The notes beneath the pieces are model-generated. The model was given only the letters and a program-made list of their open reading frames with translations, was not told where the DNA came from and searched no databases. Both the position numbers and the translations under genes were made by a program. This document shows, piece by piece, positions 2,085-22,939 of a DNA stretch of 64,000 nt. The stretch's first letter is position 1, and each line of letters starts with the position of its first letter. Source of the DNA: Naegleria gruberi (Eukaryota); the NCBI GenBank assembly GCA_000004985.1, contig GG738849.1; one strand, 5' to 3'.

Positions 2085-3616
2085 TTACTTCGTCGTATGC
2101 TTAATGACCACCCAAATTACTGCTAATACTAAAACAAAAAGGGAAATTAATTTTAAAAGATCTGCATTTTTGGTTCCACTTACTTCATTCTTTGATGAAC
2201 GATTTTCAACAGTTGACTTGGGGTTTGTTCTGTCAAATTTTGAGTTTTTAGAATCTTCTTGCTTGGAGTTGCAGGATGAAGGTTTTTCTTGACTTGTCAA
2301 AATTTCATCTTCTGAAGTTGGTGAATCTATTTGATTGTATGGAGTTTGAGATTGTAATCTATTACGTGAACTGTTCAAATGGAAACCTCTTCCAATAACG
2401 AAACCACCACTCACACGACCAATTGAATGACCAGCACTGTATAAGGATTTTTGTTTGTTTTCAGGATTGTTTGCTGCAGTGGATGTAGACATACTCTTTG
2501 CTTGTTCATCCTTGATAATTTCAGATTCAACTTGCTCCAATGAGAGAGGAGGTAATAAATCTGAGGCAGTAACCATATGGGCAGGATTTGAAAGTGGAGA
2601 CAGCAACTTTGGCAAGGAAGGAGAGAATGAAGGAGAATTCAATGAAGGAGATGAAGGTGGAGAGAATGAAGTAAATCTGACTTGAGTTTTAAGTGCTTTG
2701 AGGACTGACTTTTTGATATTTTCCTTCTCGTTATACTTTTTAACACCTCTGTTGGCTTGATATTCAATTGTTGTTGTCTTGTCAATTTCTACACTCTGCA
2801 AAATCTTTCTAATTTTTCTCATTACAAATTGAATATGCTTTCTGTCAAGCATGCATCCGTTCCAAATTTGAATTGCATCATAAGGTCTTTCTACTACTCA
2901 ATACAATACCACTCACTTCATACTTGTCAGTAAAATGTTTTTCTCCTATAATTGCCAATACAATTTCATTCCATGTTTCCTTTCTCGTCTCCTTGTGATG
3001 TGTTTGAATTACCCAACGACCACCTTCAATATTCTAAAGTTTCATATTAAAAAATTGGCGAAATAATTGATATTAGAATATTGGAAAAGGATGATTGTTT
3101 TCAACTTACCCTTGGATCTTCGTAGAGTGGTTTTATGTGTGATTTGAACAATCTAATATTGAGATAGGAAGGCATCTTGTTGTATGATAGATTGATATTA
3201 TTCCAATATCTCCAAAACTCTTCAATAGTATCAAATGCTCCAACTTGTTTGATAGATTGTTCATAATCTTCAGGTGAGGCTCCTTGTTTGAAACCTTGAT
3301 CATAGTAAATAGTCCACTTATTTCTGAGAAGATGTGTTGAACTCAATGGAGATTGATCTCCTAAATTATCATCAACGAGATCCTCTTCATCTGTATCTTG
3401 TGCTTCATCATCACTATAAAGTAATGATGGTGAAGAGGAAGGCTGAAGTACATCAGGAGTGGTTATTCTTTGGAAGTGTTCATCAGAATACAATTGTGAA
3501 TCATCTTCCTCGTCATGTTCTAACATTTCAAACCATGACTTTGGTGATGTTGGTGTTGATATTGTACTACCATTGAGTTTGGGAGAAGAAAGACCAACCT
3601 CAACTCTTTCCTTCAA
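2085..3616 (-). CDS. EIF4E: eIF4E-family cap-binding protein with long C-terminal extension; 2 exons plus an apparent +1 frameshift
   Basis: ORF 3101..3616 carries the eIF4E core (WTIYYDQ..., FDTIEEFWRYWNNI, SYLNIRLFKSHIKPLYEDPR). A GTAAGT donor at 3104-3109 and an acceptor ending at 3034 give a 76-nt intron. The next exon continues NIEGGRWVIQ...IIGEKHFTDKYEVSGIVLSSR. The frame then breaks at an A-run near 2910-2915 and resumes in ORF 2085..2852 (PYDAIQIWN...TIEYQAN). Removing one A restores SSRRPYDAIQIW. The C-terminal ~180 aa are Ser/Pro-rich and end in a hydrophobic stretch (LISLFVLVLAVIWVVI-KHTTK). The first start is a TTG, so the true ATG is unresolved. Confidence 0.7.
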
Positions 3617-4532
3617 TTGTTTTTTCTATTAACATGATTATTAAATAACGGAACATTGGTAGATGAAATTATCAATTATTATTTTGTTTCATCAAATCGA
3701 ACCATAAAGGTCATGGATGGAATATCAATATCCACAAGAAGAAGCAGAATATAATATTCAATATCATACAAGAGTTTCAAATCAGCAAACTACTCCTACA
3801 ATACCGAAGGTGTAGTCATTTGCTTATTTTATTTGTATGTGTAATGATGATAGTGAAAATGAAGATAAAAAAAGGTGACTCGGTTTCAAACTCCTATTCA
3901 GTGTTGTTCCTAGCCAAAAAGTTCTGTTGCTGTTGTTGATGATATGAAGAAGAAGCAAAATTTGAAGAAGAAAACTCTCTATGTCTTGACTCGTTCTTTT
4001 TCTTTTTTATCGGATGAAAAAAGAAAACTACAAGAGTTTAATGATCAGCAATAAGAAAAACTTTGATTATTTTGTGTATTTTACTAAATTATAATCGAGA
4101 TTGTTGTAATCATCACCATTTTGTGTGGAAAAAGAGATATAATCCATTGTTATTGTAGTGAAGGGAATAATGACGAGAAAGTATATTGAGGGTAAATCAT
4201 GCTGAATAACATTACTCAACAACCAACTCACTCTACTATAACATTAAGACAGTCAGCTAAAACGATATACAGTGTAATGTGAGCACTTTACTGTAATAAG
4301 CTAGATACAGGAGCGAAAATGTCCATGACTATTTTAATCATGTCCTTGTTGAATCTTTTGTGGTGTAAAAAATAAACTTGGCCATGGTGTGTTGTAGGTG
4401 GTGACACAACCGTATTGAAATTTTGAAGATTACATTCTATTCCTATTAGCTTTTATTCGAAATGATCTTTCAATAATTTGAATTTTCAAATAAAATCCAA
4501 AATTCAATTAAAAAATCAAAAAATCAAAAAAA

Positions 4533-6383
4533 ATGCAAAGAATCACAGAAAGAACTAACTTTATCACCCGAGACATTGATGTAGTCGGAGATGTTGATGG
4601 TATGGTTCGTTTACTCCGAACAAGTGATGCACAAATGTTTTGTGGATATGAAGATTTTCCATCATGTTTTGATGAGGATTGTTTGGGTGCTTTGGAAAAA
4701 ATTTCCCTCCGAATGAAACTCTGTATGCAAGATAGATTAAATGGAGTGAGAGGAAGTGTTGTTATGAGTGGTTGTGGAACAAGTGGTAGAATTGCCTATT
4801 TTTGTTCAAAGAATTATAATTATTGTTTTAGAAAAGTATTTTCTGATAGGATTGATAATGATGAATGCTTTCAATTTATTATTGCTGGTGGAGTGAATGC
4901 TCTTGTTTCACCACAGGAAGCTGCTGAGGATAAACCAGATATTGGAGCAAGAGATTTGGTAAATGTCATTTCGAATACTAAAACTGAGAGAGGATTATTT
5001 ATTGGTATTACTTGTGGATTTTCTGCTGGTTATGTAGCTGGTCAAGTGATGCAATTGAGTGAGGATAAGAGTCTTGGTTTTGATTCTGTTTTATTTGGGT
5101 TTAATCCAAAGGAGTTGGCTAGGGATAGTCCAATTGAAGGATGGAGGGATGGAAATATTTCTTTCAAGGACGTAATTGAAAATGTGGAAAAGAACCAATC
5201 GAGAGAGGATGAATTTTTCTTTTTGAATCCAATTGTTGGACCAGAATCTATCACGGGTTCTACAAGAATGAAGGGTGGAAGTGCAACCAAATTTCTGCTT
5301 GATGTTGCCTTCTCTTCAGCCATTATGAGTATTCTGGATGAAAAGAAGAAGATTAGAGACAATATCATTCAAGTACTCTCTGGTTTTGAGCATACTGTGA
5401 GAAGTACATATGATTTTTCTAGTAATACCTTTTCAACAAATAGTCTCAAATCCATTACTCCAACCATTGAAATGGCAGCAAATAGTTTAAAGAATGGTAA
5501 CCTAGATGAAAGAAACGAGGATCAAATGGGCCATATTTATTACATTGGTGCTGAAAATGCTGGAATTTTGGGATTTATTGATTCTTCAGAGTGTGTACCA
5601 ACTTATGGTGCTCATCCTAATGATGTTAGAGGATTTATCAAAAAGGGATGGAACGATGTCTTTACCCATCACAATCAAGATATCAATAGTGATTTTGAAC
5701 AAAAGGGATCAAGTTTTGGCATTTCCTATGATTTCTTCAAACAAAATATTTTACATACAGTCAATTCTAGGGATTCGGTCTTCTTTTTGGCAATTGAACA
5801 ATGTATAGATGAAGAAACTCTTGCTGACATGAAGGAAATCCTAAATACGGTCAAGGAAAGAGGGGCCTCTGTCTGCTGGATTCTTGTAACCACAAAAGGT
5901 AATAATTCATTGTACCAGACCGTATCTGAATTGGGATCCCCAATATTGCACCATGCGCTTGACTCGCTTGGTCCAGTACCTTTCTTATATGGTTATGCAG
6001 AGCTTAGTATGAAACTTTTTTTGAATGCCATTACAACTGGTGCTCACGTATTGAAGGGTATGACATTTGGAAATAGAATGATCAATCTCAAAGTTAGTAA
6101 TAACAAACTATTTTATAGGGCTATTAATATTGTCAGTTCGATAATGAATGTAACTGAAGAGCTTGCAGAGAAATGTGTATTGAGAGCCATCTACAATGAT
6201 TCAACTCCAGAAAGTAACCTCGTCTCACTTCACATTAGTCATGCTATCAAGATGAATAAGGTAGTTCCTGTTGCCCTCTTGCTTGCTTCTTCAGGTGGTA
6301 CCTTGACTGTGGAACAAGCTAGAGAAATGTTAGCCAAAGACCCGGTGGTTAGGCAAGTAATTCTAAAGGAAAAGAAGAATTAA
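4533..6383 (+). CDS. GCKR: Glucokinase regulatory protein-like (GCKR/MurQ family, tandem SIS domains)
   Basis: 616-aa single-exon ORF. Motifs match GCKR: GCGTSGRIAYF, FNPKELARDSPIEGW, GPESITGSTRMKGGSATKFLLD, SNNKLFYRAI, and the C-terminal VPVALLLASSGGTLTVEQAREMLA. Confidence 0.8.
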   Translation: MQRITERTNFITRDIDVVGDVDGMVRLLRTSDAQMFCGYEDFPSCFDEDCLGALEKISLRMKLCMQDRLNGVRGSVVMSGCGTSGRIAYFCSKNYNYCFRKVFSDRIDNDECFQFIIAGGVNALVSPQEAAEDKPDIGARDLVNVISNTKTERGLFIGITCGFSAGYVAGQVMQLSEDKSLGFDSVLFGFNPKELARDSPIEGWRDGNISFKDVIENVEKNQSREDEFFFLNPIVGPESITGSTRMKGGSATKFLLDVAFSSAIMSILDEKKKIRDNIIQVLSGFEHTVRSTYDFSSNTFSTNSLKSITPTIEMAANSLKNGNLDERNEDQMGHIYYIGAENAGILGFIDSSECVPTYGAHPNDVRGFIKKGWNDVFTHHNQDINSDFEQKGSSFGISYDFFKQNILHTVNSRDSVFFLAIEQCIDEETLADMKEILNTVKERGASVCWILVTTKGNNSLYQTVSELGSPILHHALDSLGPVPFLYGYAELSMKLFLNAITTGAHVLKGMTFGNRMINLKVSNNKLFYRAINIVSSIMNVTEELAEKCVLRAIYNDSTPESNLVSLHISHAIKMNKVVPVALLLASSGGTLTVEQAREMLAKDPVVRQVILKEKKN

Positions 6384-21349: not shown

Positions 21350-22939
21350 TTATTCCATATTGTTGTGTTGATGACGATGGGTGTAGTTTGTACTTGAAGA
21401 CTTTTTAGCAGTGAATTTATATTGAGCTGCAAATACATCTGATGGAATATCCTTTGCTCCTTCACGATATAAAACTTCTACAGTCCTTGATGTTGGACTG
21501 AATGGGAATGATTCAAGTAATGAAAATGCTTTCCAATCTTGATTAAATCGTAAATATGTTGCCAACATGGTATTATAAAGACGTTCTCTAAGGGATTCAT
21601 CTTGAATCTTGTCACGGAATCGGAAAAATACTCTCTCAGCTTCATTGAGATTACCAGTTATTGTGTATGCATAAATGATTTGATAGGCAGAATTTGAACC
21701 TCCTGTTTTGTCTATTATTATTCTTTCCAATTCTTTCAGTTCATTAAGCTTTTTTGAATCTGCAAGAGCAATCAATAAAATTCTATAAGAATTGATTGGA
21801 ATTTCATATCCATCCTTTAACAATTCAACATAGTAGTGATAGACCTTATCTAATTGGTTCTTGTTAAAGTAATAATAGAATAAGAATGAATAAATGGAAA
21901 CTGAAGGTTTAACCTTATCCTTTCTCATATGACTGAATAAAAATGAAATTAAATCATTTCTATCTTGATTACAGGCAGCAGAAATTAAAATTGTATATGT
22001 TGAGGTCATTCTCTTAATACCCATATCAGGCATTTCATGGAAGAAACGAAGTGCCAAATCAATATTATTGTTTTTAACGTGATGATTAAGAATTGGAGCA
22101 AAGATATCGGCTGTCAAGTGCTTTGAACCTTGCAATTTGACAGTAATTTCGTGAGCTTTTTCCATCATACCTACATTGACATAGGCATAAACAAGGGAAG
22201 ACCAGTGTCTACCATTTGGATTTTGTAATCTAGAAAAGAGAGCTTCAACTTTTTCAATATCCTTCATTCTTGCATAAAGTGTAATTCCTGTATGGATAAT
22301 ATTTTCGTTATTATTATCCTTAACATTTTCAAAAATCTCTAATGCTTCCTTGATACATCCTCTTTCTTCATAAAACTTCATCAAAACTCCATAAACTGAT
22401 GATCTTGGCAATTGTTTGATTGATTTAATATTGTCAAATAAATGTTCTTCTGAAACTCTACGATTAAAGATACATAAATCTGATAATTGTTTAAATACTT
22501 CCGATTGTAATTCAGGTGAAGCATCTTCTTGTCCATTCTTCTTGACATATTCTAAAATCTCGTTTAATACTTTAACGTTTGGAGTAAATGTATTGGTGTG
22601 TTTAATGGCAGAATCAAATATAGCTGTTTTTAATTCATTAATAGATGATTCTTTAGAAACTTCCTCTAGAAGAAAATCATCAACAAAAACATCTCCGATA
22701 GTAGGAGCTGGTGTTGTTGGTAAAGAAGTTTCTGTAGTACTATTTGTTATTGCTTCAACTTCCTCACTAATTGGTGTGGTGCTATTGTTCATTCCTCTCA
22801 TAATAGTGTGATATTTGTTATTAGTAGATGAAACAAAGCAACTTTGAGTGCTTTTGGAAAAATTCATGAATTTATATTGTGGTAGAGCACCTCTCATCAC
22901 AACTTTGGAGACAATTCTTGGTAATTGTGACGCTCTCAT
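21350..22939 (-). CDS. Pentatricopeptide/TPR-like helical-repeat protein, probably mitochondrial
   Basis: 529-aa ORF with a basic N-terminus (MRASQLPRIVSKVVMRG) and repeated ~35-aa helical-hairpin units (e.g. VYGVLMKFYEERGCIKEALEIFENV, TYTILISAACNQDRNDLISFLFSHM). Confidence 0.55.
   Translation of the reverse strand: MRASQLPRIVSKVVMRGALPQYKFMNFSKSTQSCFVSSTNNKYHTIMRGMNNSTTPISEEVEAITNSTTETSLPTTPAPTIGDVFVDDFLLEEVSKESSINELKTAIFDSAIKHTNTFTPNVKVLNEILEYVKKNGQEDASPELQSEVFKQLSDLCIFNRRVSEEHLFDNIKSIKQLPRSSVYGVLMKFYEERGCIKEALEIFENVKDNNNENIIHTGITLYARMKDIEKVEALFSRLQNPNGRHWSSLVYAYVNVGMMEKAHEITVKLQGSKHLTADIFAPILNHHVKNNNIDLALRFFHEMPDMGIKRMTSTYTILISAACNQDRNDLISFLFSHMRKDKVKPSVSIYSFLFYYYFNKNQLDKVYHYYVELLKDGYEIPINSYRILLIALADSKKLNELKELERIIIDKTGGSNSAYQIIYAYTITGNLNEAERVFFRFRDKIQDESLRERLYNTMLATYLRFNQDWKAFSLLESFPFSPTSRTVEVLYREGAKDIPSDVFAAQYKFTAKKSSSTNYTHRHQHNNME

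Follow-up and report, generated by a model that had tools for sequence, protein, structure and literature searches.

Proteins of the eIF4E family are regarded as soluble factors. 4EHP (eIF4E2), a protein of roughly 245 amino acids, is soluble, and Class II (4EHP-like) proteins act as repressors through partners of the GIGYF or 4E-T type instead of eIF4G. The (S/T)VxxFW motif forms the surface to which eIF4G and the 4E-BPs bind. Placement of mRNAs at membranes is known from the signal-recognition particle, from 3'-UTR-binding proteins and from ribosome receptors, and tail-anchored proteins such as LRRC59 (ER) and SYNJ2BP/OMP25 (mitochondria) interact with mRNA or with translation on the surface of organelles; to our knowledge, none of the latter has an eIF4E cap-binding domain. 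Tail-anchored proteins are inserted post-translationally, by GET/TRC40 or similar, with their N-terminal domain in the cytosol.

In Class II, Tyr, Phe or Leu stands in place of Trp-56; the same replacements are found at Trp-43 in the metazoan and plant members, while the fungal ones keep Trp-43 (Joshi 2005, PMC1260017). eIF4E3 (Class III), described in Metazoa only, combines Trp-43 with a Cys or Tyr in place of Trp-56 (Joshi 2005, PMC1260017). Fungal eIF4Es of F-Subclass IA and F-Class VI have Tyr or Phe in place of Trp-56, C-terminal extensions of up to hundreds of residues and insertions inside the core (PMC11791286, J Biol Chem 2024); the words "membrane" and "transmembrane" are absent from that paper. 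The trypanosomatid eIF4E3 and eIF4E4 are protist paralogues with altered cap-pocket residues and long disordered extensions; these are N-terminal, and the available part of the source describes no membrane anchor (PMC5862402). In the eIF4E family surveys examined, dating from 2005 to 2024, the word "transmembrane" does not occur and no anchored class is mentioned, and a full-text literature search, with most subscription journals outside its reach, returned no report of a membrane-anchored eIF4E.

Here, we describe an eIF4E-family gene on the minus strand of the window, the 64,000-nucleotide stretch of Naegleria gruberi DNA that was analysed (contig GG738849.1 of assembly GCA_000004985.1). It is probably the N. 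gruberi orthologue of an apparently undescribed subfamily of anchored eIF4E-like proteins, encoding a cap-binding protein with a tail anchor that would keep the 5' ends of mRNAs close to an endomembrane. With 4EHP it shares the eIF4E fold, a Tyr at the Trp-56 position, a non-basic residue at position 162 and the Trp-73 motif, but it keeps Trp-43, has a Tyr instead of Trp-102 and is lengthened by a conserved N-terminal region, a linker of some 183 amino acids and a C-terminal hydrophobic anchor. Retention of Trp-43 distinguishes it from metazoan and plant Class II proteins and is shared with the fungal ones. Formally it fits the Class III signature, but it scores lower against eIF4E3 than against 4EHP structures, and eIF4E3 has neither extension nor anchor. 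The fungal proteins differ from it in their core insertions, and the trypanosomatid ones in the position of their extensions and, as far as they are described, in having no anchor. The predicted topology, a cytosolic domain with one C-terminal anchor and few residues after it, and the proposed mRNA-holding role resemble those of LRRC59 and SYNJ2BP/OMP25, although here the contact with the mRNA would be the 5' cap itself.

Gene structure and cap pocket

The gene is modelled in three exons, where a preliminary description of the locus had joined two. The core is indeed completed across an intron, but there is probably a third, tiny exon upstream. The open reading frame 3616-3101 contains the N-terminal half of the eIF4E core and terminates at YEDPR|GTAAGT; the core picks up again at NIEGGRW, after a GT..AG intron of 76 nucleotides (intron 2, 3109-3034, GTAAGT...TTTAG) whose position is shared with N. 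lovaniensis and Willaertia (YEDP[KR]|NI[DE]GGRW). Exon 2 (3110-3625) encodes the first half of the core, preceded by an N-terminal extension that is conserved (SWFEM, LYSDEHFQRITTPD), and its reading frame is identical in the 97% identical metagenome contig L006 (protein P0012). A conserved helix near the N-terminus follows the pattern Y-x-[DE]-E-x-[FY]. Exon 3 (2085-3033) encodes the second half of the core, followed by the C-terminal extension and the hydrophobic tail, and closes with the stop codon (TAA, 2087-2085); its counterpart is one unbroken exon in N. lovaniensis and Willaertia. Because the orthologues have a tiny first exon (MNSPSVLL, MAQEGQMLL or MSSSSAPSVLL) spliced onto KKQ..., we propose that the gene starts upstream of 3616, probably with a 15-nucleotide exon 1 at 3819-3805 (ATG ACT ACA CCT TCG, MTTPS) that matches those of the orthologues and is followed by a cryptic GTATTG donor. 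The putative intron 1 (3804-3626, 179 nucleotides, GTATTG...TAATAG) has its acceptor where N. lovaniensis, Willaertia and the metagenomic Naegleria contig L003 have theirs (LL|KKQ); intron positions are thus conserved between the window gene and its orthologues. The divergent upstream neighbour is syntenic with the orthologue loci; downstream, the HAD hydrolase of the related loci L001, L002 and L003 is missing from the window.

Membership of the eIF4E family, already assigned in the preliminary description, was judged by a score above the Pfam gathering threshold across the core of about 160 residues. The joined protein matches IF4E (PF01652) with an E-value of 5.1e-38 and 130.7 bits (cut-off 28.7), over profile positions 2-151 of 158. 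At E < 1e-5, 35 eIF4E chains of the PDB match, human 4EHP being the top solved structure (E 2.3e-25; 92 bits) and eIF4E3 structures scoring lower (62 bits).

The alignment of the cap-binding Trp residues, which the preliminary description had suggested, shows that the Trp-56 position is occupied by a Tyr (PEDYEQS, within 3271-3254) that aligns with Tyr78 of 4EHP, and that Trp-102 is also replaced by a Tyr in Naegleria and Willaertia (window codon within 3133-3113), a change that had not been foreseen. Trp-43 (RNKWTIYY), Glu-103, Arg-157 and Trp-166 are kept, while position 162 is without Lys. The dorsal partner-binding motif is kept as TIEEFW (3223-3203), with Ile instead of Val, and ends at Trp-73. 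Judging from these residues, the cap pocket is 4EHP-like and resembles that of Class II. As Tyr is aromatic, stacking on the cap may persist, and a cap sandwiched between two Tyr residues, as in the Naegleria clade, would be an unusual natural variant of the pocket. The window protein departs from the rule given for classified eIF4E-family members (Joshi 2005, PMC1260017).

The C-terminal extension and anchor-bearing relatives

The frame from 2852 to 2085 is free of stop codons and runs from the last third of the core through about 183 further residues (183-186, depending on where the anchor start is set) to LLKLISLFVLVLAVIWVVI, KHTTK and the stop, bearing out the run-on of about 180 residues and the tail-anchor-like ending noted earlier. 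At local composition, the chance of 207 codons without a stop is 1.3e-7 and none of 2000 shuffled sequences stays open, so the long open frame is not due to chance. The linker is predicted to be disordered and carries conserved short motifs and blocks. The Ser/Pro richness first ascribed to all of it holds only for residues 297-330; overall, the extension is just Ser-rich (20% Ser, 8% Pro). This Ser/Pro block (FTSFSPPSSPSLNSPSFSPSLPKLLSPLSNPAHM, 2574-2675) is near-invariant in Naegleria and Willaertia, has a dN/dS of 0.07 relative to the sister-species contig L005 and contains candidate proline-directed phosphorylation sites. Another block, LYSAGHSIGRVSGGFVIGRGFHLNSS (residues 374-399, 2367-2444), is conserved in the orthologue alignment and without Pfam match; a Pfam search of the protein at E <= 0.1 gave IF4E alone, and no known domain in the extension.

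The hydrophobic segment LLKLISLFVLVLAVIWVVI (residues 469-487, 2103-2159) is predicted to be a transmembrane tail anchor, forming a hydrophobic helix of 16-19 residues. Its 19-residue Kyte-Doolittle mean is 2.96, compared with a maximum of 0.61 elsewhere in the protein; depending on the window used, means for the N. gruberi tail range from 2.96 to 3.29, with a Hessa sum of −3.0. Only the five residues KHTTK (2088-2102, net charge +2) follow it, and hydropathy indicates no second membrane segment. An N-terminal signal sequence was not found on hydropathy scales, the maximum 12-residue Kyte-Doolittle value being 0.09 for windows starting in the first 30 residues. As the protein has neither a signal sequence at its N-terminus nor a Cys at its C-terminus, a GPI signal or lipidation was ruled out on inspection. 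The corresponding run of hydrophobic residues is short in N. fowleri, N. lovaniensis and L003 (about 14-17 residues, with a Gln among them) and is only marginal on a simple Hessa-scale sum. An AlphaFold2 model of the N. lovaniensis orthologue, built from a five-sequence alignment and poor overall (mean pLDDT 40), shows the linker at low confidence and ends in a helix whose block-mean pLDDT values are 65, 78 and 60.

Conservation of the extension, proposed at the outset as a check, is found in the close relatives compared. The orthologues of N. fowleri, N. lovaniensis and Willaertia span 99-100% of the query, extension and tail included; both elements are also conserved in two metagenomic Naegleria contigs, one of them L003. 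In the three examined as DNA (N. lovaniensis, Willaertia magna and L003), extension and tail share an exon with the core. The position and hydrophobicity of the tail are conserved in the orthologues, and within Naegleria its sequence is well conserved too (LKLISLFVMAVIW), with pN values of 0.07-0.16 and pS values of 0.52-0.73. Relative to L005, the gene as a whole has a dN/dS of 0.067, and the extension, past the frameshift described below, one of 0.071. By these measures, extension and tail are under purifying selection.

The anchored architecture, described at the outset as unusual, is not a one-off. In an exhaustive search with an eIF4E profile HMM, the best 150 of 5649 hits were examined for C-terminal hydrophobic segments; 34 of these 150 have a single transmembrane-like segment at their C-terminus, and they are concentrated among the 30 top-scoring hits. 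They are from Amoebozoa (named sources being Thecamoeba, Sappinia, Cavostelium, Mastigella, Pelomyxa, Polysphondylium and Dictyostelium purpureum), Heterolobosea, the ciliate Muranothrix and unidentified marine transcriptomes (MMETSP transcripts). Several are transcriptome-derived (MMETSP, Trinity), with core, linker and terminal hydrophobic segment on a single mRNA. Together with the window protein, the 35 sequences have a median anchor length of 19 residues, a median of five residues after it and linkers of 54-823 residues, and in 33 of the 35 the terminal segment is the sole hydrophobic one. The anchor sequences themselves are unconserved across the set; what is conserved is hydrophobicity, length and terminal position. 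Two motifs of the core, FWxYWN and NLRLFK (N[LIVM]R[LVI]F[KR]), occur together in 25 of the 34 anchor-bearing proteins, versus six of the 115 others, and are present in the window protein as FWRYWNN and NIRLFK. In a neighbour-joining tree, calculated without support values and without a reference eIF4E3 among its sequences, the anchor-bearing proteins, the window protein among them, group together. These comparisons point to an apparently widespread and undescribed subfamily of C-terminally anchored eIF4E-like proteins. The initial interpretation of a membrane-tethered cap-binding protein is supported, with membrane insertion and function as predictions.

Lesions in the reference copy and alternative readings

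Two lesions distinguish the reference copy. Comparison with orthologues identifies a 1-nucleotide insertion (an extra T; AA on the plus strand) at 2883/2882, where the window reads AAG ACC TTA TGA and N. lovaniensis, Willaertia and two metagenomic Naegleria contigs read ACC or ACA followed by TAT GAT (AAGACCTTATGATGC in the window, AAAACC-TATGATGC in L005, AAGACCTATGAT in L003 and AAAACATATGA in L001 and L002). A single-base correction had been called for in the preliminary description; the base concerned is this T, not one in an A-run near 2911. As sequenced, the frame ends after residue 228, at a premature TGA (2880-2878) two codons past the inserted T. The other lesion, seen in a blastn alignment of L006 to the window, is a deletion of 17 bp between TATTGT direct repeats (3798-3804). 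Lost with it are the final codons of exon 1 together with the canonical GTAAGT donor, so that the window reads ...TCG GTA TTG TAG, where L006 has ATG ACT ACA CCT TCG GTA TTG TTG|GTAAGT. Going by the structure of the orthologues, the L006 state, with its donor intact, is ancestral. L006 stops at window position 3014, short of the frameshift site. Word-indexed protein searches gave no N. gruberi match across that site and hence no intact N. gruberi allele spanning it; an exact DNA pattern allowing either allele had no match in JGI metagenomes, and a related-locus search confirmed no relative there.

Since the frameshift and the loss of the exon-1 donor are both present, the reference copy of this gene, which is otherwise under constraint, may be a null allele. 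It is possible, if doubtful, that the strain sequenced for the NEG-M reference assembly has lost the function of this locus only recently, through a pseudogene or null allele, and that the architecture is real in relatives but yields no full-length protein here. Two independent derived lesions argue for it, as does the lack of a protein model for the locus in the searched collections, where both checked neighbours are annotated. However, apart from the lesions all exons are open and conserved, and the dN/dS of 0.067 relative to L005 includes the codons past the frameshift; any inactivation would therefore be very recent. The insertion could also be an assembly error (L005 likewise has a 1-nucleotide indel of its own, at another site), an in-phase cryptic GT (TCG|GTATTG) remains after the donor deletion, and the strain may hold other, intact alleles. 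In either case, a possibly defective reference allele at a locus without a protein model is relevant to the annotation of the genome. Full-length protein could in principle be produced by ribosomes moving +1 at ACC UUA UGA U, where the stop codon directly after the shift site is superficially antizyme-like, sites of the antizyme type having a stop codon in that position. Such programmed frameshifting is hardly credible, since at this point the frame is intact in each of the five related sequences, one of them at 85% nucleotide identity, and neither ACC nor UUA could re-pair in the +1 frame; we know of no such mechanism in Naegleria. Along with a short intron at the site, it was rejected on the residue-by-residue alignment of VSGIVLSSRKT-YDAIQIW with the orthologues, the relatives all being in frame.

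Other alternatives concern the extension itself. It might lie outside the protein, removed by an intron that escaped recognition or by an early 3' end, with the long reading frame incidental or belonging to another product; the N. lovaniensis and Willaertia proteins do derive from genome assemblies instead of transcripts. This we consider very improbable, as the extension continues, without a stop, the frame that encodes the last third of the eIF4E fold, an openness that chance does not explain, with protein-level conservation and low pN/pS in that frame, and transcriptome-derived relatives have the whole architecture on single transcripts. A hidden intron or stop, named in the preliminary description as what would overturn it, is unsupported because of the orthologue exons, the purifying selection and these transcripts. 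It is also unlikely, though less remotely so, that the protein is soluble and its hydrophobic segment a degron, an oligomerisation element or a helix for protein-protein interaction. In favour of this, the segment is short, most of the Naegleria and Willaertia sequences have a Lys or Gln in it, with simple insertion-energy sums there slightly positive, and its sequence is well conserved within Naegleria, as would be expected of a binding motif. Over the 35 sequences, however, hydrophobicity, length and terminal position are kept and sequence is not, which fits a lipid-embedded helix; in nearly all of them it is the only hydrophobic segment, and the N. gruberi version is strongly hydrophobic.

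Proposed role at the membrane

As a tail-anchored cap-binding protein, the reading we favour, the gene product would be inserted into the membrane post-translationally, with its cap-binding domain in the cytosol. Very hydrophobic anchors with short, weakly charged tails are directed to the ER; because the anchor here is very hydrophobic and its tail short and weakly charged, the target membrane would most probably be the ER. The flexible linker would let the domain catch mRNA 5' caps, and a partner of the YxxxxL-phi type, near the membrane, and the outcome could be local translation, or repression or storage of particular mRNAs. The 4EHP-like pocket would speak for a regulator of low affinity that depends on a partner, more than for a general initiation factor. 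If this is correct, cap recognition would be tied directly to a membrane by an eIF4E paralogue's own anchor, adding a class to the eIF4E family and a direct, cap-dependent route to localised control of translation.

A broader proposal, which we make tentatively but think quite possible, is that of an ancient and widely distributed eIF4E class that is permanently anchored to endomembranes by its C-terminus, and that recruits or silences specific mRNAs there through a linker-borne cap-binding domain. Proteins with the predicted anchor are found at least in Amoebozoa, Heterolobosea and ciliates, and the class may therefore predate the divergence of these supergroups; the route seems to be missing from animals, fungi and plants. 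Orthologues are present in dictyostelids (D. purpureum and Polysphondylium), making the idea directly testable in a tractable model.

Gene structure and the reference allele

The window is gene-dense, with a G+C content of 29–38%, and two of its open reading frames, 4533-6383 on the plus strand and 21350-22939 on the minus strand, are identical to the N. gruberi proteins XP_002681668 and XP_002681833, both from an 850-kb scaffold. These identities, the base composition and the gene density identify it as part of the nuclear genome of N. gruberi, a heterolobosean amoeboflagellate. The minus-strand open reading frame that ends at 3101 opens with a polar N-terminal region and runs on into the first half of an eIF4E core, its 3' end reading YEDPR followed by GTAAGT. 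After a 76-nt intron (3109-3034, minus strand; ending ...TTTAG), the core resumes as NIEGGRWVIQ... until the frame breaks at AAG ACC TTA TGA. The frame beyond the break encodes ...YDAIQIWNGCMLDRKH..., the remaining core, about 183 further residues, LLKLISLFVLVLAVIWVVI, KHTTK and a stop. At this position, the loci of N. lovaniensis (L001) and Willaertia magna (L002), a metagenomic contig from Naegleria (L003) and a contig of a sister species with 85% nucleotide identity (L005) read ...AGA AA[A/G] AC[A/C] TAT GAT GC..., and the window has exactly one additional T, at 2883/2882. The preliminary description had placed this single-base shift near 2911, 28 nt away.

The joined protein matches Pfam IF4E with 130.7 bits (cut-off 28.7). 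At the local composition, a stop is expected about every 14 codons, the probability of 207 open codons is 1.3e-7, and none of 2000 shuffles was stop-free over the same stretch. An eIF4E-family gene with a long extension and a hydrophobic end, as first described, is upheld by the Pfam match and the open frame; the details of its gene model had to be corrected. Orthologous gene models begin with a tiny exon (MNSPSVLL, MAQEGQMLL and, in L003, MSSSSAPSVLL) spliced to KKQ.... The matching acceptor is present in the window (ttaatag followed by AAAAAACAA), with a putative exon 1, ATG ACT ACA CCT TCG (3819-3805, minus strand), upstream of it. The corrected model has 492 residues in three exons (the others at 3625-3110 and 3033-2085), its residue-to-coordinate map having been checked codon by codon; no protein model for the locus was found in the protein collections searched.

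A metagenome contig (L006), 97.4% identical to window 4299-3014, contains an exon 1 of ATG ACT ACA CCT TCG GTA TTG TTG followed by GTAAGT, encoding MTTPSVLL with a canonical donor, like the orthologues. Compared with positions 486-502 of this contig, 17 bp are missing from the window at 3798-3804 (minus strand), the gap lying between TATTGT direct repeats. The deletion removes the exon-1 splice donor GTAAGT and the last exon-1 codons; an in-phase cryptic GT (TCG followed by GTATTG) is retained. The four remaining indels are all in non-coding DNA, and the single difference in exon 2 is synonymous. L006 stops short of the frameshift site. Judged from these alignments, the reference copy carries two derived lesions, the 1-nt insertion and the exon-1 donor deletion. 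Long-standing decay of the gene is disfavoured by the low dN/dS against L005 (0.067 overall; core, 0.025; extension, 0.071 over the 69 codons covered), which takes in codons 3' of the frameshift, namely those of the extension and some of the core. Either the insertion is an assembly error, or the gene was inactivated very recently in what may be a heterozygous null allele; protein collections and JGI metagenomes were searched for an intact N. gruberi allele across the frameshift site, and none was found. L005 has a 1-nt indel of its own in an A-run at about 990-1000 (CTTAAAAAATCC versus CTT-TCAAATCC), which throws the called frame out of the conserved one. Past this indel, conservation continues in the original frame, which makes an assembly error probable.

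An AT-rich intergenic region of about 700 bp (3820-4532) separates the start codon from that of the divergent upstream neighbour, NAEGRDRAFT_78308 (4533-6383, plus strand). This GKRP-like gene is syntenic with N. lovaniensis (L001 5445-7441), where its counterpart has GKRP/SIS domains. Downstream, a minus-strand frame of at least 600 codons (1-1803) continues past the left end of the window; at its start are a stretch rich in Asn and a signal-anchor-like segment (RRIINLLIIFITTILILLTF). Its place in N. lovaniensis, Willaertia and L003 is taken by a HAD-type hydrolase gene, which has no match anywhere within the window.

C-terminal extension and hydrophobic segment

The alignment with orthologues from N. 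fowleri (569 aa), N. lovaniensis (584 aa) and Willaertia (499 aa) is full-length, at 48–51% identity and 99–100% coverage. The extension noted in the preliminary description is present full-length in each, ruling out its absence from orthologues; a single unbroken exon encodes it together with the tail and the second half of the core in N. lovaniensis and Willaertia. Conserved blocks of the extension are FTSFSPP(S/P)SPSLNSPSF, LSPL(S/T)NPA(N/H)M, LPPLSLE and LYSAGHSIGRxSGGFV(V/I)GRGFHLNS, followed by the tail (D/E)xLKLISLF..(V/M)AVIW...TTK. Within Naegleria, the terminal 26 codons have a pN of 0.07–0.16 against a pS of 0.52–0.73, and the extension a pN of about 0.3 against a pS of about 0.67, with synonymous sites near saturation.

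The C-terminal segment has a 19-residue Kyte-Doolittle mean of 2.96 in N. gruberi and 1.8–2.3 in its relatives; no other segment of these proteins exceeds 1.0 on this measure, and the predicted protein has no signal peptide. A simple Hessa-scale sum of −3.0 favours membrane insertion of the N. gruberi segment, and is marginal in other Naegleria sequences, which have a shorter hydrophobic run. AlphaFold2 gave a generally poor model for the N. lovaniensis protein (mean pLDDT 40), with the extension as low-confidence coil. Residues 560-583 form a helix (block means of 65, 78 and 60) that includes the top 10-residue block of the model. Hydropathy and comparative evidence support the predicted tail-anchor-like end that had been proposed.

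A wider family with a predicted anchor

A HMMER search of 1.84 billion representative proteins with a profile from five relatives matched 5649 eIF4E-family proteins. A hydrophobic segment (19-residue Kyte-Doolittle mean of at least 1.6, inside the last 44 residues) is present in 34 of the best 150, and these 34 cluster towards the top-scoring 30. Together with the protein from the window (35 sequences), their anchors have a median length of 19 residues and are followed by a median of 5 (range 0–16), while linkers measure 54 to 823 residues; two of the 35 contain another segment of comparable hydrophobicity. The anchor sequences are dissimilar. Position, length and hydrophobicity kept without sequence are the pattern expected of a lipid-embedded helix and not of a sequence-specific binding motif.

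Anchor-bearing members occur in Amoebozoa (Thecamoeba quadrilineata, Sappinia pedata, Cavostelium apophysatum, Mastigella eilhardi, Pelomyxa schiedti, Polysphondylium violaceum and Dictyostelium purpureum), in the ciliate Muranothrix gubernata and among MMETSP and other transcripts. Several of these are transcriptome assemblies, in which a single mRNA thus encodes core, linker and anchor. A neighbour-joining tree of the cores, calculated without support values, places anchor-bearing sequences with the clade of Naegleria and Willaertia, apart from the Class I-type clades with Trp-43 and Trp-56 and from the 4EHP-type clades with Tyr/Phe-43. Of the 34, 25 contain both core motifs, FWxYWN and N[LIVM]R[LVI]F[KR], versus 6 of 115 others. 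These comparisons support an eIF4E subfamily with a predicted membrane anchor. In the databases, its members are called 'hypothetical protein' or 'translation initiation factor 4E', or have been misnamed. The word 'transmembrane' is absent from surveys of eIF4E diversity (Joshi 2005; Jagus 2012; Jones 2015; the 2024 fungal classification), and no membrane-anchored eIF4E was found in the full-text literature searched, which covers subscription journals thinly, making an earlier description possible.

In P0013, a high-scoring relative of 695 aa, the hydrophobic segment LSLSTVLLCLALVTAVGVTVVVL lies about 95 residues from the C-terminus and is followed by an acidic tail; not all members are therefore strictly tail-anchored. 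P0038 (Pelomyxa schiedti KAH3760108, 1170 aa), annotated as 'digestive organ expansion factor', combines an eIF4E core (about 266-445) with a hydrophobic anchor at its C-terminus, and probably reflects misannotation or a fused gene model.

Cap pocket, proposed role and candidate partner motifs

Among solved structures, chains of human 4EHP match best (E 2.3e-25, 92 bits), with eIF4E1 at about 82 bits and eIF4E3 at 62 bits. Aligning the cap-binding residues with human eIF4E1, as the preliminary description had proposed, places Trp at positions 43, 73 and 166 and Tyr at 46, 56 and 102; Glu-103 and Arg-157 are retained and Lys-162 is replaced by Ala. Tyr at 102 is unusual, given the rule of Joshi et al. 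and its near-absence from the 60 sequences tabulated, where it occurs in Naegleria, Willaertia and one other (P0041); most other anchor-bearing members keep Trp-102. The partner-binding motif of the core is intact.

The sequence shows an eIF4E fold with a modified, still aromatic cap sandwich, a constrained, Ser-rich linker, predicted to be disordered and containing conserved short motifs, and a single predicted hydrophobic helix at its end. Comparative evidence supports interpreting it as a tail-anchored cap-binding protein. The anchor would be inserted after translation, leaving the cap-binding domain in the cytosol. High anchor hydrophobicity and a short, low-charge tail direct such proteins to the ER, which by these rules would be the likeliest target membrane. 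There, mRNA caps and a YxxxxL-phi partner could be captured near the membrane. Because the cap pocket is 4EHP-like, the sequence leans towards a low-affinity, partner-dependent regulator more than a factor for general initiation; the protein may still activate translation locally.

In P0018 and P0053, the nearest anchor-bearing relatives apart from Naegleria and Willaertia, the sequences YDREALI (about 516-526) and YDREVWI (about 526-536), respectively, immediately precede the anchor. The former matches the canonical 4E-binding motif YxxxxL-phi and resembles YDREFLL of eIF4G. This hints that these proteins may bind their own eIF4E domain, in cis or in trans; the corresponding position in Naegleria lacks Tyr. 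An element Y-x-[DE]-E-x-[FY], loosely resembling a 4E-binding helix, is present in the N-terminal extension (window 3493-3452, residues 50-63, LYSDEHFQRITTPD) as YSDEHF, in P0018 and P0053 as YLEEAY, and also in three further proteins (P0001-P0003). In the poor N. lovaniensis model, the matching residues are predicted as a short helix of low confidence.
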